Below are positions 12,109 through 30,880 of a DNA stretch of 64,000 bases, piece after piece. The translations under genes and the position numbers were made by a program. Source of the stretch: Verrucomicrobiota bacterium (GTDB lineage: Bacteria; Verrucomicrobiota; Verrucomicrobiia; Limisphaerales; UBA11358); contig JBEKMW010000007.1 of assembly GCA_049523455.1 (NCBI GenBank), positions 7,918 to 71,917 on the forward strand, written 5' to 3'. Under the pieces are notes generated by a model that worked only from the letters and a program-made list of their open reading frames with translations, did no database searches and was not told the DNA's origin. The number at the start of each line of letters is the position of its first letter. Position 1 is the first letter of the stretch.

Positions 12109-13632
12109 ATGAATAATGGAAACTCGGATTCGTTTACTGAAAATATGCAAAAACTGCTTCCTCTGCTGGTTACTGGTGTTCTGGGCATCTGTTGGCTGAA
12201 CGGCTCGCCGGCTTTCGGTGCGGACGCCATGAATTATCGGACGGACCAAATCCTCATTCGCTCCAAAGCCGGCGTCAGCGGCGCCGCGCTGGCCGCATGG
12301 CATGCCGCACACGGAGCACGGGTGGCGAAGTCCTTTGTTTCGGTCGGCGGTTTGCAGGCGGTCACCGTGCCGCCGGGGGATACCGTCCCCGGCCTCATTG
12401 CCAAATATCAACAGAGCGGCCTGGTCGAGTTCGCCGAACCGGATTATCTCGTCTATCCCAACGCCACGCTCCCGAACGATCCGGCCTTCACCAATGGAAT
12501 ATTATGGGGCCTCGACAATTATGGCCAGAACGGCGGCACGCCCCATGCCGATATTGATGCCATTGACGGCTGGGACGTGCTGACCTCGGCCAGCAACATC
12601 GTCGTGGCGGTGCTCGATTCGGGCATCCTCGCCACGCACGAGGATTTGGCGGCGAACATGTGGGTCAACCCCAACGACGGCGGCAATGGATACAATGCCT
12701 TCACCGGCACAAACGATCCGAGTGATGACTCCACCAGCCACGGAACCATGGTGGCCGGGGTATTGGGCGCCGTGGGCAACAATGGCATAGGCGTGACCGG
12801 CGTGGCTTGGCGCGTGCAGATGATGGCTTGCAAATGTCTCAACAACGGCTCCGGCAGCGACTCAACCGTAATCGCCTGCATTGATTATGCCATTACCAAT
12901 GGAGCCCGGATCATCAATGCCAGCTTCAACAGTCCAACGCCTTCCCTGGCGCTTTCCAACGCCATCGTGTCCGTCGCCAACGCCGGCATTATCTGGGTGG
13001 CGTCCGCCGGCGACAACAGCTACAACGTCGAGGTCAATCCCAGTTATCCCGCCTGCTATGGCATCCCCAATGTCGTCGCCGTGGCTTACACCACCCGCAC
13101 CGATGCTCTCGGCAGCGCCTCTGATTACGGTCCCATCCACGTCGCGCTGGGTGCGCCGGGGGATCAGATTTACACCACCTATGCCGCGTCCGACTCGTCT
13201 TATTTCCCGCCCCTCGGCATTAACTATAATATTGCCGGTACTTCCTTCTCTGCGGCCTACGTTTCCGGCGCGCTGGCCCTCATGCTGGCCAAGTATCCCA
13301 CCGAAAATTACCAGCAGATCATCCAGCGGTTGTTGAATGCCACGGATCCGTTGCCGTCGCTGGCGGGCAAGTGCGTCACGGGCGGCCGCCTCAACCTGAA
13401 GAAGGCCTTAAACCCGCCCATCTGGCTCTACCCCGTGGCCACGACCAATTCCGCATTGTTTCAATTGCACCTTTCCACCGGCGCGAACCGCCTGTGCGTC
13501 ATCCAGGCCTCCGCCGACTTGCTGAATTGGACCCCGGTCTATACCAACACCACCTCCACCAACGGCACGTTTGACTACACCAACGCCCTCGTTTCGCCCG
13601 GCCAGTTCTTCCGCGCAACCACGACACTTTAA
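12109..13632 (+). CDS. Secreted S8-family (subtilisin-like) serine peptidase
   Basis: Catalytic triad contexts VAVLDSGI, HGTMVAGVLGAVGNNGIGVTG and GTSFSAAYVSGALALM. C-terminal tail ends ...SPGQFFRATTTL. The start may be ATG 12145. Confidence 0.9.
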   Translation: MNNGNSDSFTENMQKLLPLLVTGVLGICWLNGSPAFGADAMNYRTDQILIRSKAGVSGAALAAWHAAHGARVAKSFVSVGGLQAVTVPPGDTVPGLIAKYQQSGLVEFAEPDYLVYPNATLPNDPAFTNGILWGLDNYGQNGGTPHADIDAIDGWDVLTSASNIVVAVLDSGILATHEDLAANMWVNPNDGGNGYNAFTGTNDPSDDSTSHGTMVAGVLGAVGNNGIGVTGVAWRVQMMACKCLNNGSGSDSTVIACIDYAITNGARIINASFNSPTPSLALSNAIVSVANAGIIWVASAGDNSYNVEVNPSYPACYGIPNVVAVAYTTRTDALGSASDYGPIHVALGAPGDQIYTTYAASDSSYFPPLGINYNIAGTSFSAAYVSGALALMLAKYPTENYQQIIQRLLNATDPLPSLAGKCVTGGRLNLKKALNPPIWLYPVATTNSALFQLHLSTGANRLCVIQASADLLNWTPVYTNTTSTNGTFDYTNALVSPGQFFRATTTL

Positions 13633-13678
13633 GCCGCATTCGCCAAAAGAGCGCGGATTGTCCTCAATCCGCAGCCCT

Positions 13679-13895
13679 GAAGAATTCGCGCATCAAACCC
13701 CTGAACCTGCCGATGCCACACGACCTTCCGAATATGAATGCTGCCCGGTTGCTTTCCCCTCTCCGCTCCCATCGGATGGGAGGGGAGAGGGTCAGGGTGA
13801 GGTGAGGGTTCTGGCTTCGTTGGCTGTCGGCTATTGGCTATTGGCTATTGGATTTCGAATGTTCCCCGGTTCATGGAGAGGGCCGGGGTGAGGGG
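13679..13895. repeat. Composite REP-1 element (reference copy for the cas4 insertion)
   Basis: gaagaattcgcgcatcaaac..gaacctgccgatgcc..ccgaatatgaatg..REP-1 hairpin..ggctatt heptamers..ccggttcatggagagggccggggtgagggg. Confidence 0.8.
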
Positions 13896-14230
13896 CTCAT
13901 TCACTATTTCATTGGATGTCGGATGTTCCCCGGGGGCCATGGCTTCGGATCGCACGCTGAGGAGGCCGGAACTTTTGGACTGCGCCGGCAAAGCGAAGCG
14001 GCGACGGCGCTTTCGGATGTCGGGGGCTCATGGATCGGCGCAACCGCGTTGGGCCGCAGTGCCCCCTGAAACATTTCTCCTTTCTGCTTTGTTCTCCGAC
14101 CTCTGACCTCCGACCTCAGCATGTCAGCATGTCAGCGTTTCAGCTTTTTAAACGCCCGTGGTCCTCAGTCTCGTGGTCTGCGGTCTCGTTGTCAGTAGTC
14201 TCGTGGTCTGTGGTCTGTGGTCTGCAGTGC
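13873..14230 (+). repeat. ~355-bp dispersed composite element, copy 1
   Basis: Near-identical to 18819-19167. From atggagagggccggggtgaggggctc... through ...gacctctgacctccgacctcagcatgtcagcatgtcagcg...gtggtctgtggtctgcagtgc. Confidence 0.9.
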
Positions 14231-14283: not shown

Positions 14284-14823
14284 TCATTTCACCGCTGATT
14301 CCGCCGGCACTTCCCTGACCTCCTCTTCCAGGTAGCGCTCAATGTGGCGGTCCAAATCAGACGCGCTGCCGGCGCAGGTCGCCGCCTGCACGCGCTCCAG
14401 CATCTCCGCGGCCCAGTCTTCCTCCTCGACCTGTTCGGCGATGAACCAATGCATGAGCACTTGCGCCGGATAATCCCTGGCGGCCACCGCCGCCTCATAG
14501 ACGGCGTTGATCCCCTGTGTGTTGGCGTGTTCCTGCGCGTGCGCCTGCTGCGCCACTTCCAGCAACGACCGGAATTCCTGTTTGGGCGCGGGCAGCGCCG
14601 CCACTTCCGCGCTCACCCCGCGGTCGGTCAGGTGTTTGATGATCTTCTCGGCGTGTCCGCGCTCCTCACCCGCCTGCTTCACGAAGTATTTGCCGAAACC
14701 CTTGAGGTTCCTGATGTCGCACCAGATGGACAACGCCAGGTACGAGTGCGCGGCGGCGAGTTCCAGGTTGAACTGGCGGTTGAGTTCCTCGACCACCTTG
14801 GCGGCGATTTTCGATTTAGACAT
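14284..14823 (-). CDS. Ferritin-like iron storage protein
   Basis: VEELNRQFNLELAAAHSYLALSIWCD...QAGEERGHAEKIIKHLTDRG...QEHANTQGINAVYE are the ferritin di-iron helices. Start chosen at ATG 14823. Confidence 0.85.
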   Translation of the reverse strand: MSKSKIAAKVVEELNRQFNLELAAAHSYLALSIWCDIRNLKGFGKYFVKQAGEERGHAEKIIKHLTDRGVSAEVAALPAPKQEFRSLLEVAQQAHAQEHANTQGINAVYEAAVAARDYPAQVLMHWFIAEQVEEEDWAAEMLERVQAATCAGSASDLDRHIERYLEEEVREVPAESAVK

Positions 14824-14869
14824 AATGATGCCAATGGTAAGCAACCCGGGCCGGTTTGCCAAGCGGTGG

Positions 14870-16181: not shown

Positions 16182-18731
16182 TCACGGCTTCACCACCGCC
16201 ACCACCAGCGCCTCCGGCCGCAGATACTTCTGCGCGGCGGCTTTCACTTGGGCCAGCGTCACGGCTTCGTATCGCGCGTCGTCCCATTCCGCGCGTTGCC
16301 AGCCGAGGCCGTACAGTTCGTCCAGTGCGGTGGTGGAGGCCAGATGGCCGAGGTCCTGTCGCGCAATCTTCTTCTGGCCGATGAGTTTGGCCTTCGCGCG
16401 CTTGAGTTCATCCGCTTTCAGTCCGTCGGTGCGCAGCAATTCGGCTTCTTTAAGCAATTCCGTTTCCACTTGCGCCGCCTTCGCCGGTTCCGTGCCGGTG
16501 TAAAACGCAAAGTAGCCCGGGACCAGTCCGGCAAAGTTTTGCGCGCCGACGTAGTAAGCCAGCCCCAGTTCATCGCGGATGCGCAGGAACAGCCGCGATC
16601 CTAGGTCGCTGCACGACTCTTGCAGCAGATCCAACGCGTAACGGTCCTCGTCCCCCATCGTCGTCCCCGGGAAACCGATCACCAACACCGCCTGCTTTTT
16701 GTCTCGGGTTTCTTCCATTCGATTGGATGTTGGATGTTCGATGTTCGATGTTGGATGTTGAATTCCCTCGCCCGGCTTCCATCGGCCAAACGCCTTCTTC
16801 ACCGCCGCCTTGACCCCGGTTGTCTTCACGTCGCCGTAAATGGCCACCACGGCATTGTTCGGCACGATGAGCTTGCGGTGAAACGCCTTCAAATCCGCGG
16901 TCTCAAGTTTTACCACGGAACCTTCCGTGCCCAAGACATCCAGGCCATACCCCCCGTTGCCGAACATGGCCTTGCGCATGGCTAGGCTCGCGCTCTTGAG
17001 CAGGTCGTCTCTTTGCGCATGAATGCCCGCAATTTGCACCTCGCGTTCGCGTTTCATTTCGTTTCCGGGGAAGACCGGGTTCAGCACGACGTCGGCCAGC
17101 AACGCCAGGCCGGTCGCAAAATCGCTGCTCAGCACTTCCGCGGTTACGCCCAGACTGTTGTTGCCGCCGTAGCTGTCAATGCTGCCGCCGACCGATTCGA
17201 TTTCCGTCACAATCTTCTCCGCGCTGCGCGTCTGGGTGCCCTTGAGAAGCATTTTGGAAAGCAAGTGGGTCACGCCGTTGTTCCCGGCGGTTTCGGCCAG
17301 TACGCCGCCTTGAAAAACGGCTCGAAACTCCACGAACGGCAGGCGATGGTCTTCCTTCACCAGCAGCCGCAATCCGTTCGCCAGCTCAATTTTCTGGATC
17401 GCGTGGTCCGCGTTGGTCTCGATTTCCAGGCGGGCCTTCGGGGCGGCGCCGTTGGGCAGCAGCGCGTAAAGCGTGCGGTTTTCCGGCGTGAGATATTCCC
17501 GGGCGACGCGCTGCACGTCGGCGCGCGTCACGCGTTTGACGGCCGCCAGGTAGCGCTCGGAAAAATTCAGGTCGTTGGCGGCCAGCCAGTTGCCCCCCAG
17601 GTTTTGCGCCTGGCCTTCCATGGTCTTGCGCGCCGCCAAAGTGCCCGAGACGAATTGTTTCACCGCCTTTTTTACTTCCCCGGCCGAGACCGAACTGGAT
17701 TTGACCCGTTCGACTTCGGCCAGCATCGCCTCACGCGCCGGTGCGAACTTATCGCCGTCAGCGATGGCGCTCAGGCCGAAGAGTCCCGGCAAACCGGGAC
17801 TGTAAGTCCAGGCTTCGACGTGATGCACCAGGCCCTGTTTCTCGCGCACCTGCTGGAAAAGACGGGAGCTATGGCCGCCGCCCAGCAGCACGGCCAGCAC
17901 GTCGAGCGCCGGGATGTCACGATGGCGCAGTTCGGGAATATGCCAGGCAAAATGAAAATGCCCGAGTTCAATCGGCGCCTCCTCGACGATTTCGCGTGGC
18001 GCGGTCTGCTTGGGCTCCGCCGGCAGGACCATCGGCGGCAGCGCCTGGGCCTTGGTCTTTCCGTAGGCGGCGCGGATTTGGGCCACCACCTCGTCGTTTT
18101 TCACGTCGCCGGCCACCACGTAGAACACGTTGTTGGGCGCGTATTTCTCGTGGTAATAGCCGTGAATGTCGTCGGGCTTGAGTTCGTTGAAAATGTCGGG
18201 GTACCCGATGATCGTGAAGCGATACGGGCTTTTGGTGTAAGCGGCTTCAAACAACCGGCGGCTCGCGCGGCGGGCGGGATCGTCCTGGCCCATGTCCATC
18301 TCGCGGCGGATCACATCCATTTCCTTGGCCAATTCGTCCGGCGGCAGCGTGGCGTGCTGCATGATGTCGCACAGAATATCAATCGCCGTATGCGCGCCCG
18401 TGTTGGGCACGTCAATGTGATACACCGTGCGGTCGAAGCTCGTGTACGCGTTCATGTAACCGCCCGCCTCCTGCACTTCCTGGTCAATGCGGCTCCCCGG
18501 CCGCGTCGTCGTGCCCTTGAACAGCATGTGTTCGAGCACGTGCGACAGCCCCGCGCCGAGCCACCGGCCTTCGTTGATGCTTCCCGTGGCGCACCACGCT
18601 TGCGCCGACACCACCGGCGCGCTGTGGTCCTCGCCCACGATCACCACCAGCCCGTTCTCGAGCGTGGTGATATTCACCCCCGGTGGCTGCGACGGGATTT
18701 CACCATTTAGACCTGATTTACTCATTGGCAT
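16182..18731 (-). CDS. Fused double M16-family (pitrilysin/insulinase-like) zinc peptidase
   Basis: HxxEH zinc motif in GLSHVLEHMLFKGT. A second M16-like half follows. The halves are joined through an IQHPTSNIEHPTSN segment encoded by a heptamer tract. Start chosen at ATG 18731. Confidence 0.85.
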   Translation of the reverse strand: MPMSKSGLNGEIPSQPPGVNITTLENGLVVIVGEDHSAPVVSAQAWCATGSINEGRWLGAGLSHVLEHMLFKGTTTRPGSRIDQEVQEAGGYMNAYTSFDRTVYHIDVPNTGAHTAIDILCDIMQHATLPPDELAKEMDVIRREMDMGQDDPARRASRRLFEAAYTKSPYRFTIIGYPDIFNELKPDDIHGYYHEKYAPNNVFYVVAGDVKNDEVVAQIRAAYGKTKAQALPPMVLPAEPKQTAPREIVEEAPIELGHFHFAWHIPELRHRDIPALDVLAVLLGGGHSSRLFQQVREKQGLVHHVEAWTYSPGLPGLFGLSAIADGDKFAPAREAMLAEVERVKSSSVSAGEVKKAVKQFVSGTLAARKTMEGQAQNLGGNWLAANDLNFSERYLAAVKRVTRADVQRVAREYLTPENRTLYALLPNGAAPKARLEIETNADHAIQKIELANGLRLLVKEDHRLPFVEFRAVFQGGVLAETAGNNGVTHLLSKMLLKGTQTRSAEKIVTEIESVGGSIDSYGGNNSLGVTAEVLSSDFATGLALLADVVLNPVFPGNEMKREREVQIAGIHAQRDDLLKSASLAMRKAMFGNGGYGLDVLGTEGSVVKLETADLKAFHRKLIVPNNAVVAIYGDVKTTGVKAAVKKAFGRWKPGEGIQHPTSNIEHPTSNRMEETRDKKQAVLVIGFPGTTMGDEDRYALDLLQESCSDLGSRLFLRIRDELGLAYYVGAQNFAGLVPGYFAFYTGTEPAKAAQVETELLKEAELLRTDGLKADELKRAKAKLIGQKKIARQDLGHLASTTALDELYGLGWQRAEWDDARYEAVTLAQVKAAAQKYLRPEALVVAVVKP
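16725..16766. repeat. Six-unit heptamer tract inside the M16 peptidase gene
   Basis: ggatgtt|ggatgtt|cgatgtt|cgatgtt|ggatgtt|gaattcc (42 nt, in frame). Encodes IQHPTSNIEHPTSN on the minus strand. Confidence 0.9.
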
Positions 18732-18818: not shown

Positions 18819-19167
18819 ATGGAGAGGGCCGGGGTGAGGGGCTCGTTCACTATTTCATTGGATGTTGGATGTTCCCCGAGGGCCATGGCTTCGGATCGCA
18901 CGCTGAGGAGGCCGGAACTTTTGGACTGCGCCGGCAAAGCGAAGCGGCGACGGCGCTTTCGGATGTCGGGGGCTCATGGATCTGCGCAACCGCGTTGGGC
19001 CGCAGTGCCCCCTGAAACATTTCTCCTTTCTGCTTTGTTCTCCGACCTCTGACCTCCGACCTCAGCATGTCAGCATGTCAGCGTTAAACGCCCATGGTCC
19101 TCAGTCTCGTGGTCTGTGGTCTCGTTGTCAGTAGTCTCGTGGTCTCGTGGTCTGTGGTCTGCAGTGC
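18819..19167 (+). repeat. ~350-bp dispersed composite element, copy 2
   Basis: Same as 13873-14230 apart from a few substitutions and one ~10-nt indel (tttcagcttttt). Confidence 0.9.
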
Positions 19168-20595: not shown

Positions 20596-20707
20596 ACGCC
20601 TCGTCATTCCCATAGCGCCGTCACCGCTCCACTCTGCCGGCGCATTCCAAATGAAAGGTAATGAAACCAGTCGCGGTCAACTGCCCCGCTCTTGCGCCGC
20701 GTCACAA

Positions 20708-21145
20708 GTTTCAATCCGCGCCCCGCGCACATGCGCGGGGCGACCCGGTAGGGCGGCGCTGCCGCGCCGCCCCAACTCAGTTTCAATCCTGTTTGGAATT
20801 TGAAATTTTGGATTTTCGATTGGGGTCACAATGGTCCAAGGCCGCTCCGGCTTTCAATAACCCACGCCATGTACCCGAGGAAGCCGTCATACTTTCCAAT
20901 CCACGCCCCGCGCACATGTGCGGGGCGACCCGGATATGTCCGATCCGTCCAATACGTCAGATCGGTTTCAATCCGCGCCCCGCACACGCGCGCGGGGCGA
21001 CGTCATGCAGCAGGTCCGCAGCGAGCGCATGAAGGAGTTTCAATCCGCGCCCCGCGCACGCGCGCGGGGCGACAAGTCATCCGCGACCTGCACGACACCA
21101 AAAAAATCGTTTCAATCCGCGCCCCGCGCACGCGCGCGGGGCGAC
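20708..21145 (-). CRISPR. CRISPR array with a 37-nt repeat and 35-nt spacers, type I-C-like, interrupted and decaying at the distal end
   Basis: Plus-strand repeat is gtttcaatccgcgccccgcgcacgcgcgcggggcgac, at 21109-21145, 21037-21073, 20965-21001 (1 mismatch), 20893-20929 (4 mismatches) and 20708-20744 (2 mismatches). A 10-nt stub sits at 20780-20789. On the minus strand it ends ...GGATTGAAAC and has a 9-bp stem gccccgcgc/gcgcggggc. Confidence 0.9.
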
Positions 21146-21352
21146 TGCGGCCCTCCCTCTCGGTTGAGCCGCAAGCACTTTTTAGCCCCTTTTCGCCAAC
21201 CTGCCAATCCCTCTCGCACGCTGACGTTCCGATATGTCAAAGAACGATGGAAAATGCCCGCCATCATTGCGGTTGCCCCCTGCCGCGAAATCCCGGTTGC
21301 CGGCCCGTCACTTCTGGTTCGCGGAATGGCGTTCATACAATCAATGGTTCGT
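21146..21352 (-). promoter_or_regulatory. Putative CRISPR leader between the cas1 stop and the first repeat
   Basis: Position only. The best-conserved repeats abut this side and degenerate repeats lie at the far end. No Cas2-like frame is seen here in any of the 3 minus-strand frames. Confidence 0.4.
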
Positions 21353-22228
21353 TCAGATCCACTGCGTCACCGCCAGACGGTCAGCCAGCCACGGACGGAA
21401 TTCCTCCATCAAATCCAGCGCCAGCCCCGGACGGTTCGGGCGGTCGGCGTGGAGAAACCCGACAAACGGATCGAGGCCGATGCTGGTCAAAGCCGCGATG
21501 CAATCATGCCGCACCAGCGCGTATAGAAACGAAAGCAGACAATTGATGCGGTCGCGCGGCGGACGGCGGCTGCGATTGGCAAACGTGAAGTCCCCGCGCT
21601 GCTGCTTGAGCAACCAGGTGAACACGCCAAAATAAGTCGCGCTGCCCATGCCTTCCGCGCCGCGCAAAGCGTCAAGCGCGCCGGTTTTCCGCAAATCATC
21701 GGCCGTCCATCGGCCGAGTTCCTGAATTTGGCCCGCCAGCTTGTCGGTCGCCTCTGAAATTTGAGATCTGTCGTTTGAAATTTCAGATTCGCGCCCCGCC
21801 CGGAGCAGAGAGTTGCGGCTGTTTTGGAGTTTGCCGGCAATGATTTGCCGCGCGATGGCCGCGCATTTGGCCGCATCATCGGCGGCGCGGAATTGTGCCC
21901 GCCGCAACGTCACGCTGGTATCCGCCACGCCCGTCATCCGCGCCTGGAGATAACCGTTTTCGCTTAAAAAATTCACCGCCACGCCGTGTTCCCAGCATAA
22001 ATCCAGCGCCGGCGGACTGATGGTGCTTGGCCCAAAGACACAGATGGATTCCAGCATGTGAATGGGGATGGACAGTTTCTTCCAGTCCGACACCCGTTCG
22101 CGAATGCGTTCCGCAGGCGGGAGATCGTCAGGATACAACGGCACTTCCACTTGCAGCGTTAAATGGTCGCGCGCCACGTAGCTGGCGGGCGTCGTCAGAT
22201 ACAGCGTGTTTTGGGCAAAGTCGGGCAT
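21353..22228 (-). CDS. cas1: Cas1 (type I-C-like), apparently C-terminally truncated
   Basis: NTLYLTTPASYVARD... then RPPRDRINCLLSFLYALVRHDCIAALTSIGLDPFVGFLHADRPNRPGLALDLMEEFRPWLADRL, then a stop after ...AVTQWI. 291 aa, versus the ~340 aa I recall for I-C Cas1. Contains the ESEISNDRSQISE segment encoded by an AT-rich palindromic motif. Confidence 0.85.
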   Translation of the reverse strand: MPDFAQNTLYLTTPASYVARDHLTLQVEVPLYPDDLPPAERIRERVSDWKKLSIPIHMLESICVFGPSTISPPALDLCWEHGVAVNFLSENGYLQARMTGVADTSVTLRRAQFRAADDAAKCAAIARQIIAGKLQNSRNSLLRAGRESEISNDRSQISEATDKLAGQIQELGRWTADDLRKTGALDALRGAEGMGSATYFGVFTWLLKQQRGDFTFANRSRRPPRDRINCLLSFLYALVRHDCIAALTSIGLDPFVGFLHADRPNRPGLALDLMEEFRPWLADRLAVTQWI

Positions 22229-22264: not shown

Positions 22265-22792
22265 TCAGATGAGGCCGCGCTCCTCGGCGTCCTTGCGGAG
22301 CGGATGATTTGGCGGCAGACTGCGCAACAACTGCTTTTGCATCGCCACCGCCCGTTGCTTCTGGCCGTCCGCTTGCCGGGATTTGTCCGTCAAATGCCGC
22401 TGACCTTTGATGTCCGAGTTTTGCAGCGAATCCGCCCAGCCGCGCAACTGCCGGGAACACGACTCGGCTATGGATTTCAAATTTGAAATCTCCGATCTGA
22501 GATCCGCCGGCCAGTTCGCCTTCCGGCCCCGGCGCTCTTTCAAACAGAGCATCGAGCGCACTTCGCCCGCCGAACCGCGCGCGATGTAAATAAACGCAAG
22601 GAGTTCATTGGTCGTGCCGCGCTCGAAACCCTCGGCTACGTTGTTGGAAACCGACAGCGCCGCGCGGTCCAGTTGGTCGCGAAAGCCGCGGCTCGCGGGG
22701 AACGACTCGTTTTCCAGCAAGTCTTCCGTCGTTTCGTAAAGGTCGGCGGCCTTCTGCCACACCGGCAGGTCTTCGAATCGTTTATAGGTCAT
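22265..22792 (-). CDS. Four-helix-bundle protein (23S rRNA intervening-sequence protein family)
   Basis: MTYKRFEDLPVWQKAADLYETTEDLLENESFPASRGFRDQLDRAALSVSNNVAEGFERGTTNELLAFIYIARGSAGEVRS. Start chosen at ATG 22792 within track ORF 22265..22936. Confidence 0.85.
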   Translation of the reverse strand: MTYKRFEDLPVWQKAADLYETTEDLLENESFPASRGFRDQLDRAALSVSNNVAEGFERGTTNELLAFIYIARGSAGEVRSMLCLKERRGRKANWPADLRSEISNLKSIAESCSRQLRGWADSLQNSDIKGQRHLTDKSRQADGQKQRAVAMQKQLLRSLPPNHPLRKDAEERGLI

Positions 22793-22866: not shown

Positions 22867-23766
22867 TCAAATTTGAAATATCTGTCTGGCCAGCCGTTCC
22901 GCCCGGCTGTCCTCGCCCGCGGCTTTGGGCAGACAAATTTCAAACAGCGAACATTCCTCGCAAGCCGGTTTGAAAATGGCCGGCGGCACGCGCTGTGAAT
23001 CCAGCAAGCCCCGCAACTCCCCGAGCGAACGCTCAACCAACGCCCGCAATTCCGGCGTAAACTCCACCTCGCGCCGGCGTTTGCTCGCGGCGTGAAAGAC
23101 CGCGCCGCGTTCAATCTGCCGCCCGAGCATTTCCTCCAGGCACAAAGCCTGCGCGCAAAGCTGCGCATCGTCATTCTCAAACGCGCGGCGTTTGCCTTTT
23201 TTATATTCCACCGGCACCAGTGCGCCGATCCCTCGCCCATCAGATGCGAGAGAATTCCCCGAAGAATTCGCGCATTGAACTCCCGAACCTGCCGATGCCC
23301 GGCGAGCCTCCGAATATGGATGTCGCCCGCTTGCGGTTCCCTCTCCGCTCCCATTCTGATGGGAGGGGAGAGGGTCAGGGTGAGGTGAGGGCCCTGCCTT
23401 CATTGGATGTTGGGCGTTGAATGTTGAATGTTGAATGTCCTCCGGTTCATGGAGAGGGTGGCCGGAGGTCAGGTGAGGGTGAACTTCCACCACGTCGCAT
23501 TTCCCGGAAAGCCCCAGCCGTTCCGACCAAACCGGCAGCGCGCGTAAGAGCGTAACACCCTTGGCGACTTCGTAACCCGGCAAATCCGCGTGTTCATGGA
23601 CAATATCACCAAGGACAGTGTGTTTGTTTTCTGAGCGAACGCCCTCCACCGCCTTCAACGCCGCCCGTCGCGGGCAATAGAGCAAATCGTTGAGGAGCGA
23701 GAGGGGCAAGGTTTCCCGTTCCTCACTGTCTGAAATTTGAAATTTTGGATTTTCGATTGGGGTCAC
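22867..23766 (-). CDS. cas4: Cas4 (RecB-like nuclease, I-C-like) carrying a large in-frame repeat-derived insertion
   Basis: N-half reads LPLSLLNDLLYCPRRAAL...LGLSGKCDVVEV. C-half reads ALVPVEYKKGK...DDAQLCAQALCLEEMLG...ACEECSLFEICLP. About 86 unrelated codons lie between them. GTG start overlaps the upstream stop. Confidence 0.85.
   Translation of the reverse strand: MTPIENPKFQISDSEERETLPLSLLNDLLYCPRRAALKAVEGVRSENKHTVLGDIVHEHADLPGYEVAKGVTLLRALPVWSERLGLSGKCDVVEVHPHLTSGHPLHEPEDIQHSTFNAQHPMKAGPSPHPDPLPSHQNGSGEGTASGRHPYSEARRASAGSGVQCANSSGNSLASDGRGIGALVPVEYKKGKRRAFENDDAQLCAQALCLEEMLGRQIERGAVFHAASKRRREVEFTPELRALVERSLGELRGLLDSQRVPPAIFKPACEECSLFEICLPKAAGEDSRAERLARQIFQI
23261..23480. repeat. Copy of the composite REP-like element (same family as 13679-13895) inside cas4
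   Basis: Shares gaagaattcgcgcat..gaacctgccgatgcc..ccgaatatg.., the hairpin ccctctccgctccca-ttctga-tgggaggggagaggg, gtgaggtgaggg, heptamers ggatgtt/gaatgtt and ccggttcatggagaggg, in the same order as 13679-13895. Confidence 0.8.
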
Positions 23767-24182
23767 AGGAGTTCCAGCAACTTCACCTCAGCGGGTAGAT
23801 GTACCCGATCAACAGTGATCTTGGCCTTGTAATCATCAAACGATCAGGCGACTCCAACCTTGGGAACGCCGCCCGGCGCGGGCAATAGAGAAAATCGTTG
23901 AGAAGCGAGAGCGGCAAGGTTTCTCCCTCCTCACTGTCTGAAATTTGAAATTTTGGATTTTCGATTGGGGTCACAGGAGTTCCAGCAACTTCACCTCAGC
24001 GGGTAGATGTGCCCGATCAACAGTGATCTTGGCCTTGTAATCATCAAACGATCAGGCGACTCCAACCTTGGGAACGCCGCCCGGCGCGGGCAATAGAGAA
24101 AATCACTGAGGAGCGAGAGGGGCAAGGTTTCCCGTTCCTCACAGTCTGAAATTTGAAATTTTGGATTTTCGATTGGGGTCAC
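23767..24182 (-). repeat. Two 208-bp tandem units, each a chimera of a cas7 3' end and a cas4 5' end
   Basis: Units are 23767-23974 and 23975-24182, with only a few mismatches. Each encodes ...SFDDYKAKITVDRVHLPAEVKLLELL* (Cas7-like tail) followed by GTG-TPIENPKFQISDSEE..LPLSLLNDFLYCPRRAA (Cas4 start). Confidence 0.85.
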
Positions 24183-24649
24183 AGGAGTTCTATTAACTCC
24201 ACAGTCTTGGACAAACCATTGCGGTTGACGGTCACATCGTAATCGTCGGCGAATGGCCGGGGTGCTCTCCTTTCCGCCTTCACTTTTTCTTTCAACTTCA
24301 CCGTAACACGATCAAAGAGTTGGTGTGCAGGAGAATTGCCGAGTGCCGACTGGTGCTTGAACACGATAAGCTTTCGCGGAGCCATGAGACCGTGAAACGA
24401 TGACTCATCGCCCATGAACATGTTCCGCCCAAATTCCTCCTCGACTGAGGCACGTCCGCAAAGGGCACGGAAAAGCGTGGCCAAGTCGTCTTCAGTGAAG
24501 TTGCTCGGCGGCTTAGCGTGTAAAGCGTCCGGCCGTCTTCGTCCACAGCCGTATGTGCATAGAAGCTCATATCGCCCGGCAGGAGATTTTTCTGATGCCA
24601 TGCGAGCAATAGCAAGACGCCCAACCCGGCGCAAATGTTTTTGATTCAC
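24179..24649 (-). pseudogene. cas7: Cas7 (Csd2, type I-C) 3' fragment; the N-terminal half is missing
   Basis: FTEDDLATLFRAL...NMFMGDESSFHGLMAPRKLIVFKHQSALGNSPAHQLFDRVTV...RPFADDYDVTV matches the Csd2 C-terminal region as I recall it. No upstream cas5, cas8c or cas3. Confidence 0.65.
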
Positions 24650-30459: not shown

Positions 30460-30740
30460 TGCCGAGTTGCAAAAAGAAAAAAGGCTTGGACAGCATTTGT
30501 CCAACCCCCCGCTCCATAATTCTCGCGTGCACAACTTGAAAAGACATTTGACCGGCTCGGCGAGCACACGCCCCGCTCTTGCGCGCAAGGGCGCGCTGTC
30601 GCATTCGCCGCCCGCGCCGGACGCTCTTCCACCTTGGAAAACTCATTTCTGCCCTAACTCCCTTGATCCGGTCTTTGGCGGTAATGGACGGCAATGGACA
30701 ATCTGTCCCACGAGTAGGGAAACCAGTCCCAGGCGGTCTT

Positions 30741-30880
30741 TGGCGGTAATGAACGGTAATGGACAATATTGGACGGGCATGGGCGGGCATGGGCGATATT
30801 GGGCGATATTGGGCGCTATTGGCCGGCAATGAACGGAGATGAACGGAGATGAACGATATTCAACGATATTCAACACTACT
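30741..30880. repeat. 14-unit degenerate tandem array in strict 10-bp register
   Basis: tggcggtaat|gaacggtaat|ggacaatatt|ggacgggcat|gggcgggcat|gggcgatatt|gggcgatatt|gggcgctatt|ggccggcaat|gaacggagat|gaacggagat|gaacgatatt|caacgatatt|caacactact. Confidence 0.85.

Follow-up and report, generated by a model that had tools for sequence, protein, structure and literature searches.

How can the gene of a CRISPR adaptation nuclease stay open when dispersed repeat DNA lies in the middle of its catalytic domain? This question is raised by a cas4 gene in a 64,000-nt stretch of contig JBEKMW010000007.1 (positions 7,918 to 71,917; assembly GCA_049523455.1) from an uncultured bacterium of the Limisphaerales (Verrucomicrobiota); the whole stretch is referred to here as the window. 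A sequence-only reading of the window had claimed that two halves of Cas4 are recognizable, that about 86 codons lie between them, that the intervening DNA is collinear with an intergenic element near 13.7 kb and belongs to a dispersed repeat, and that it introduces no stop and keeps the downstream frame. All of these claims were borne out by the comparisons described below. The insert is probably a neutral and structurally tolerated nested insertion of a repetitive extragenic palindromic (REP)-like element at a permissive, mutationally active hairpin tip, in a locus that was already decaying. A 204-nt composite element, antisense to cas4 and in frame with it, interrupts the stem of an older mini-element of 42 nt, which in turn had entered at the tip of the beta-hairpin between the strands that carry motif II (Asp) and motif III (Glu-x-Lys). 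Together, the two insertions swap a turn of 4-5 residues (RHADG) for about 86 residues.

The cas4 gene and the two halves of its product were located as follows:

22867-23766, (-) strand: cas4 open reading frame (ORF), 299 aa with a GTG start, a type I-C Cas4 carrying the insert.
23482-23766, (-) strand: N-terminal half of Cas4, aa 1-95, with KCDVVEV, the motif II strand, as its last residues; matches 8d3l residues 3-85; predicted strand E86-96.
22867-23223, (-) strand: C-terminal half of Cas4, aa 182-299, which opens with ALVPVEYKKGK (motif III E-x-K) and also holds the C-terminal cluster of Cys residues; matches 8d3l residues 99-206; predicted strand E182-189.

Alignments to PF01930, to NCBIfam TIGR00372 and to solved structures in the PDB agreed on these two halves. 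The match to PF01930 (71.2 bits, cut-off 22.7) was limited to residues 182-279, corresponding to profile positions 65-159, while the match to TIGR00372 (109.8 bits, cut-off 65) was made up of two stretches. The best solved-structure match was a type I-C Cas4 (PDB 8d3l, E = 2e-29), also in two stretches, with residues 14-95 and 179-286 of the window protein corresponding to residues 3-85 and 99-206 of the 8d3l chain. Between the aligned halves there were 83 residues in the window Cas4 compared to 13 in 8d3l, a surplus of about 70; counted from the catalytic Asp to the Glu-x-Lys motif, the surplus is about 82 residues. The catalytic residues D91, E187 and K189, which correspond to D82, E108 and K110 of the A. 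halodurans enzyme (8D3L), and the cysteines of the iron-sulphur (Fe-S) cluster (C31, C269, C272 and C278) were all found in invariant or near-invariant columns of an alignment of 95 homologues, and no stop was present across the 299 codons.

The Cas4 proteins closest to the window protein were verrucomicrobial. An identical 299-aa protein was encoded by two metagenome contigs from the Joint Genome Institute (L088 and L089), and a third metagenome contig (L099) was 99.8% identical across cas4. The presence of the same allele on three independent metagenome contigs excludes an assembly artefact. The ratio of nonsynonymous to synonymous substitution rates (dN/dS) was 0.05 compared to the orthologue of contig L087 and likewise compared to that of contig L090 (195 shared codons), which shows that cas4 was strongly constrained for most of its divergence; this ratio gives no date for the insertion relative to any loss of constraint.

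The interval 23224-23481 was shown to correspond exactly to codons 96-181, i.e., 86 codons. In a global affine pairwise alignment of the window cas4 (900 nt) with cas4 of L087 (696 nt), the whole difference in length was found at one place, and none of the orthologues in L087, L090, and L091 contained the 204-nt insert. The following parts were distinguished within the interval:

23253-23456, (+) strand: composite dispersed element of 204 nt = 68 codons, antisense to cas4; the newer, nested insertion; the single net difference from L087, with ends that match the full copy in contig L095.
23248-23252, repeated at 23452-23456, (+) strand: GAGAG pentamer, a putative target-site duplication or terminal direct repeat, read from the sequence and flanking the junction.
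23224-23252, (+) strand: one arm of the older 42-nt hairpin mini-element, encoding ..SDGRGIG; L091 and L087 carry the mini-element uninterrupted (VHPHPASGHPLPSDGRGIGALV).
23457-23481, (+) strand: the other part of the older mini-element, encoding HPHLTSGHP.., as recognized by orthologue comparison.

The closest Cas4 homologues (215-217 aa) were about 90% identical to the window protein in both halves and joined KCDVVE to PVEYK by 8 residues, RHADG(A/S)LV; the minimal loop of the L090 orthologue reads RHADGSLV. In protein P0002 from contig L087, the connection was 22 residues long (VHPHAATGHPLPPDDQGIGALV), and both of its flanks are common to the window protein. The L091 allele carried the mini-element uninterrupted, with a net gain of 42 nt over the minimal loop of L090, and contained the palindrome CCCTCTCCCATCCGATGGGCGAGGG. 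The residues that flank the 204-nt element in the window protein, HPHLTSGHPL and SDGRGIG, thus come from the older 42-nt mini-element. Since the 204-nt unit sits within the stem of the older palindrome CCCTCTCCCATCCGATGGGCGAGGG, the insertion is nested, and the order of events, as it reads from the orthologues, runs from the minimal turn via the 42-nt hairpin mini-element to the nested 204-nt composite. A near copy of the mini-hairpin together with the same G-rich tail was also found in an intergenic position at 776-812. The Cas4 of L091 (10001-10675), besides carrying the 42-nt mini-element, has a scrambled N-terminus that is consistent with a frameshift; its locus is organized as cas4-IVP-cas1-cas2 without interference genes upstream and is another decaying locus.

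The pentamer GAGAG was present at both ends of the copy in L095 as well, so that it is possibly part of the element or a preferred target. It may have arisen by duplication of the target, be a repeat that terminates the element, or represent microhomology with GGAGAGGG, a motif in the target. Candidate routes of mobilization would accordingly be transposition with duplication of GAGAG, or microhomology-mediated recombination between GGAGAGGG motifs.

The composite element was found to be modular, and its modules and the other copies in the window were as follows:

23253-23338, (+) strand: left module (AATTCCCCGAAGAATTCGCGCATTGAAC...CCGAATATGGATG...); matches 13675-13772 over 98 nt with 83% identity.
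23339-23374, (+) strand: hairpin core CCCTCTCCGCTCCCAT-TCTG-ATGGGAGGGGAGAGGG, with 16-nt arms that are 94% complementary.
23375-23391, (+) strand: G-rich tail TCAGGGTGAGGTGAGGG, 3' of the hairpin; core and tail recur in the window.
23402-23438, (+) strand: heptamers in tandem, (TTGGATG/TTGAATG)n; the corresponding position of the 13.7-kb copy is occupied by (TTGGCTA)n.
23442-23456, (+) strand: right terminal module CCGGTTCATGGAGAG, common to 13868-13882, L095 and many copies in metagenome-assembled genomes (MAGs).
13675-13890, (+) strand: sister copy of the composite element in the intergenic region that separates two convergent genes, one for an S8 peptidase (12109-13632, +) and one for a ferritin-like protein (14284-14862, -).
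566-931, (+) strand: intergenic cluster of partial copies; hairpin and tail are found at 606-658 and again at 806-858, with a mini-hairpin (776-801) between them, and 860-931 holds a heptamer array with end module.

A local BLAST comparison showed that 23257-23458 is collinear with 13675-13882 (79.9% identity over 209 columns, E = 1e-48). Two full and at least two partial copies of the composite element were present in the window. The hairpin core with its tail, counted as a 31-nt unit, occurred four times compared to none expected from 100 shuffles, and the fold of the whole region gave z = -3.4. The position of the heptamer array was common to both full copies in the window, while the units differed (TTGAATG vs. 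TTGGCTA).

Copies outside the window showed that the element is an independent unit with defined ends. A full copy in the peat metagenome contig L095 starts with GAGAGAATTCCCCGAAG and ends with TTCATGGAGAG, exactly as in cas4, and another copy (L097/L098) has the same left end as the cas4 insert; the copies in L095 and L097 contain an extra 33-nt segment that is also present at 566-605. In other Limisphaerales MAGs, the left module was joined to the hairpin at 75-82% identity in about 12 loci, and these copies mostly end ...GGGTGAGGTGAGGGTCCCCCGGGTTCATGGGGAGGG. An exact-pattern scan detected the hairpin core and tail in at least 86 stretches, nearly all of them in Verrucomicrobiia MAGs and many per genome. 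A degenerate 39-nt pattern of the left module gave no match in the species-representative genomes, a collection that does not include the source species: the prolyl-tRNA synthetase (ProRS) of the window reached at most 84% identity there, and its best matches all came from soil and peat MAGs of the Verrucomicrobiia (subdivision 3, Limisphaerales).

This element is a non-autonomous composite repeat of a REP-like type, or of a type like the Rickettsia palindromic elements (RPEs), and not a classical MITE (miniature transposable element of the inverted-repeat type). A classical MITE was rejected because the element has no terminal inverted repeats; a scan of 23235-23475 showed internal hairpins only. 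A classical GTAG/CGTC REP was rejected as well, as this tag was not found next to the hairpin at 23339-23374. Size, the absence of motifs and the occurrence of the same DNA in intergenic positions spoke against an intein or intron. Rfam contained no family for the element, with sub-threshold matches that were noise, and no intrinsic terminator or terminator-like tail was detected inside the insert. No transposase domain was found in the ten neighbouring ORFs, and no RAYT gene was found within the 64-kb window.

What does such an element do to the reading frame and to the protein? The 204-nt element has one stop-free frame out of six, and this is the frame in register with cas4. The corresponding frame contains stops in the 13.7-kb and L095 copies and is open in L097. 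Three features would account for the survival of the insert: the loop is the most permissive place in a small protein, the number of inserted nucleotides is divisible by three, and the sole stop-free frame is the one in register. The hairpin between motifs II and III of PD-(D/E)XK nucleases is generally a region of variable length. In an AlphaFold2 model built with 95 homologues, strands were predicted at 86-96 and 182-189, and the intervening residues 97-181 as coil, with predicted local distance difference test (pLDDT) values of 33-56; confidence was higher for the core. The sequence-only reading had suggested a structure prediction to see whether the insert is a surface loop, and the model agrees with this. 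A Foldseek search with the model returned 8d3l_J as the top match (E = 1.8e-14) and also 7mi4. The insert is thus predicted to protrude from an otherwise intact Cas4 fold as a disordered loop, located at the tip of the beta-hairpin whose two strands bear the catalytic Asp and E-x-K, respectively.

The insert peptide is of low complexity and rich in Pro, Ser, Gly, and His. A search with the 86-aa peptide found six proteins of 65-138 aa, none of them with a Pfam domain. A functional inserted domain was therefore rejected, given the lack of a Pfam or PDB match, the predicted disorder and the absence of the peptide from real proteins; the insert is most likely a neutral passenger.

The loop was then compared across Cas4 relatives, both motifs being located in 115 of the 120 best Cas4 homologues. 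An 8-residue loop was present in 42 of these 115 proteins, and loops of 15-110 residues in the remaining 73. The longer loops belonged to several unrelated groups that resemble translated dispersed repeats, and the following groups were distinguished among the peptides of Cas4 homologues:

Loop group NPKSEIRNPK.
Loop group HPHPASGHPLPSDGRGIG.
Loop group RPHPQPLSHPMGEGG, which, judging from the peptides, seems to read like a similar hairpin motif in another frame.
Loop group of LKSKVQS.. and SPQSTVR tandems.
Loop group AECGVRNAE..EPPDVGCY, which contains a GTAG-type motif.
Loop group GRMPPSLAGRRPA.

At the DNA level, the loop of L094 contained the same mini-element as the window cas4 together with a different, 72-nt tandem duplication, and the 330-nt loop of L092 contained a hairpin that recurs both in the 267-nt repeats of the window and in several MAG loci. 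In a crude neighbour-joining (NJ) ordering of the core sequences, insert-bearing proteins were scattered among minimal-loop proteins, which is compatible with repeated gains or with recombination. Cas4 proteins with loops of 110 aa and 70 aa were found in complete operons, organized as cas3-cas5-cas8c-cas7-cas4 (L092 and L094) or as cas4-cas1-cas2 (L093), an argument for tolerance of long loops. An exhaustive search gave 150 representatives, of which at least two (P0163 and P0264) were shown to shift at this loop into another frame of the C-terminal half. Since such frame-breaking alleles occur, the site is mutationally active and not merely filtered by selection. The same loop thus seems to have been struck repeatedly by different repeat families across the Cas4 clade, and existing repeats appear to serve as landing pads for new ones. 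The sequence-only reading had called an in-frame repeat within a nuclease domain unusual. Within this clade this did not hold, as the loop is occupied by repeat-like inserts in 73 of 115 close homologues and as RPEs and intragenic REPs are documented; the nested insertion, the clade-wide commonness of such inserts and the decayed state of the CRISPR-Cas locus had been missed.

A second, less used insertion site was observed after the long helix (aa 238-256) and ahead of the C-terminal cluster of Cys residues, where P0031 carries RESEIANLKFQTP and P0056 carries APGAGQ. A motif of the NPKFQIS type was seen to recur at the N-terminus of cas4, at the C-terminus of cas4 and in the loops of other Cas4 proteins.

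The features surrounding cas4 in the window were as follows:

21353-22228, (-) strand: truncated cas1, 291 aa, matching aa 1-288 of a 369-aa orthologue and Pfam positions 1-248 of 283.
22265-22792, (-) strand: 23S rRNA-IVP / four-helix-bundle gene (PF05635) between cas4 and cas1; the same arrangement is found in L087, L088, and L091.
24179-24649, (-) strand: C-terminal fragment of cas7, Pfam positions 172-248 of 249, matching aa 151-285 of the L090 Cas7 with 40% identity.
20700-21150, (-) strand: short type I-C-like CRISPR array, with 5 repeats and one irregular 185-nt interval.

A tblastn comparison of the complete L090 operon (cas3, cas5, cas8c, cas7, cas4, DUF6429, cas1, and cas2) with the window recovered residues 151-285 of Cas7, Cas4 in two pieces, and only residues 1-288 of 369 of Cas1, and neither this search nor Pfam detected cas2, cas3, cas5, or cas8c in the 64 kb. 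The five-repeat CRISPR array was found about 200 nt beyond the truncated cas1. The junction of cas7 and cas4 was shown to be triplicated as a 208-nt tandem unit (23657-24280), with copies 100, 96, and 70% identical to the reference copy. Each unit consists of the last ~33 codons of a cas7 variant and the first ~36 codons of cas4, so that the repeats give two truncated cas4 starts, represented by ORFs 23783-23974 and 23991-24182. Contig L088, otherwise 99.9% identical, is 208 nt longer at this place, which corresponds to four copies of the unit.

The locus is a decaying mosaic remnant. Processing by type I-C Cas4 requires Cas1 and Cas2, and in a remnant locus without its partners this Cas4 is unlikely to work in adaptation, unless another genomic locus supplies them. 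It is thus probably no longer part of a working adaptation module in this genome. The choice that the sequence-only reading had posed, between a tolerated loop and a silent inactivation, is for the same reason largely moot for this genome.

Some further observations were made on this and related loci. A 42-nt copy of the start region of cas4 (GTGACCCCAATCGAAAATCCAAAATTTCAAATT..) is located at 20789-20830, inside the irregular 185-nt interval of the array. In L090, the gene between cas4 and cas1 encodes a DUF6429 protein, and in L092 a ParE toxin gene is located upstream of cas4. The Cas7 of L087 (1354-2640) is 428 aa long compared to 285 aa in L090, with several long, charged insertions that are not repeat-like.

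Several points weigh against a neutral and tolerated insertion. The window locus lacks cas2, cas3, cas5, and cas8c, its cas1 and cas7 are truncated, and an intact ORF may simply await decay, so that tolerance does not follow from this allele. The base of the loop lies about 5 residues from D91 and E187, and an 86-residue disordered loop could hinder the binding of DNA or of Cas1. The overall confidence of the structural model is only moderate (mean pLDDT 64, lowered by the insert), and the independence of the insertions across the clade rests on a crude NJ ordering without support values. As for mobility, no transposase was found among the neighbouring ORFs and no terminal inverted repeats were found on the element. 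Part of this evidence would fit a silent inactivation, by which the loop abolishes the folding of Cas4 or its assembly with Cas1-Cas2 and the insertion was a part or the trigger of the decay of the locus: cas7 is a fragment, cas1 ends at residue 288 of 369, the partner genes are absent, frameshifted Cas4 alleles elsewhere (P0163 and P0264) break at the same loop, and the insert is close to two catalytic residues. However, all catalytic and Fe-S residues are intact in 299 codons without a stop, dN/dS compared to L087 is 0.05, equal or longer inserts are present in otherwise complete operons, and the loop is predicted to be external and disordered, for which reasons silent inactivation is considered unlikely.

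The high diversity of loop sequences at a single site, in a clade where the rest of the sequence is 60-90% identical, could also suggest an adaptive hypervariable loop, involved for example in evasion of anti-CRISPR proteins or other inhibitors or in modulation of adaptation. Likewise, the three perfect TTGAATG heptamers in the insert, a unit of 7 nt that would shift the frame, and the frameshifted alleles at the site could suggest on/off switching of cas4 by heptamer slippage. Yet the inserts encode low-complexity peptides, translated from intergenic repeats, for which disorder is predicted and which are not conserved in other proteins; the heptamer copy number is the same in four sequences of this allele, and the pattern can be explained, with no need of selection for it, by a filter for permissive sites acting on abundant repeats. 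An adaptive or switching role is hence very improbable. A broader version, in which the hairpin tip is a clade-wide landing pad in Limisphaerales type I-C systems where hairpin repeats target one another and the resulting hypervariable loop is selected or heptamer-switched, is given slightly more credit and is nevertheless regarded as improbable; if true, a defence gene would be subject to a process that diversifies proteins in the manner of RPEs. Least credible of all is an artefact or the reverse direction of transfer. Repeats commonly cause misassembly, and in metagenome contig L096 the window's two 267-nt repeats are directly connected, but the same cas4 allele is present on three independent metagenome contigs, so that an assembly chimera is hardly conceivable; nor could the intergenic copies readily be derived from a cas4 fragment, as the element is intergenic in many MAGs without cas4 flanks and as the closest orthologues have the minimal loop. 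A neutral, nested insertion at a permissive hairpin tip therefore remains the probable explanation.

In-frame palindromic repeats in genes are already known from RPEs and from intragenic REPs, and the present case works like these. In Rickettsia, RPE-1 to RPE-10 are described as palindromic repeats inserted in frame in protein-coding genes (Ogata et al., 2000, Science; Ogata et al., 2002, Genome Res; as summarized in PMC10969869). Like the RPEs, the element of the window is a dispersed, palindrome-containing repeat of ~100-200 nt that is found both in intergenic and in in-frame intragenic positions, at a place judged compatible with the fold of the host protein and with orthologues that lack the insert. 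The two differ in that RPEs encode a peptide that is conserved across many host genes, whereas the peptide of this element was found in six short domain-less ORFs only; in that this element belongs to another phylum, has an unrelated sequence, is modular with a heptamer array and is nested in an older repeat; and in that many repeat families hit one site of one gene family in the Cas4 clade.

Intragenic GTAG/CGTC REPs were reported to be most numerous in the verrucomicrobium Opitutus terrae, with REP clusters encoding up to 43-82 residues that were argued to lie in loops or linkers (Di Nocera et al., 2013, PMC3733652). Similar to these, the hairpin of the window is a short G+C-rich palindrome of a REP-rich verrucomicrobial genome inside an ORF, and GTAG-type motifs as in REPs were found in some Cas4 loops of the clade (..EPPDVGCY.. 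/ ..LTSAAT..). Unlike REPs (PMC3733652), the present hairpin is untagged (no GTAG/CGTC) and belongs to a longer, composite unit whose ends are defined, and the host gene encodes a CRISPR adaptation nuclease and is not a replication or repair gene. The element resembles ERIC, BOX, Nezha, and the Anabaena MITEs (PMC10969869) in being small and non-autonomous, with a short flanking direct repeat, and in that such elements can extend or interrupt ORFs; unlike these MITEs, it has no terminal inverted repeats, and no cognate transposase was identified for it among the neighbouring ORFs.

The host protein itself shares its fold, the DEK residues and the four Fe-S cysteines with the type I-C Cas4 of A. 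halodurans (8D3L; Dhingra et al., 2022, preprint 10.1101/2022.05.30.494039), and in relatives cas4 adjoins cas1. The hairpin from D to E-x-K spans 95 residues in the window protein; its length is 25 residues in A. halodurans and only 13 in the orthologues closest to the window protein. A further difference is that the window does not contain the partner genes cas2, cas3, cas5, and cas8c. No paper on repeat insertions in Cas4 was found in a limited literature search. The case is set apart from those already known by a peptide that is not reused elsewhere, by the nested insertion, and by a single loop of a defence gene that is hit by many repeat families.

The cas4 insert provides a clean and well-bounded case, outside Rickettsia, of selfish palindromic repeats entering coding sequence, in which the order of events can be reconstructed. 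The clade-wide pattern is the more useful result: loops derived from repeats are found at a single structural position in well over half of the close relatives of Cas4, in some cases within complete operons. A data set of such loops could separate mutational targeting from selective filtering of repeat insertions. The pattern also marks the loop as a site where Cas4 naturally permits insertions, a point of relevance to engineering. For annotation, alleles of this kind split the matches to hidden Markov models and could be miscalled as fragments or pseudogenes.

Other repeats were also found in the window. Two 267-nt direct repeats that are 99% identical (13873-14139 and 18819-19085) flank a 4.9-kb region with genes for a ferritin-like protein, an AraC-family protein, and an M16 peptidase. 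In metagenome contig L096, the two sides are joined directly, which may reflect either a deletion by recombination or a collapse during assembly. Tandem arrays with periods of 7, 8, or 10 nt accompany the intergenic hairpin repeats at 13819-13855, 14148-14224, 19084-19160, 16722-16758, and 30669-30847, and the units of these short arrays are TTGGCTA, GGTCTCGT/GGTCTGT, TTGGATG/TTCGATG, and CGGTAATGGA-like sequences.

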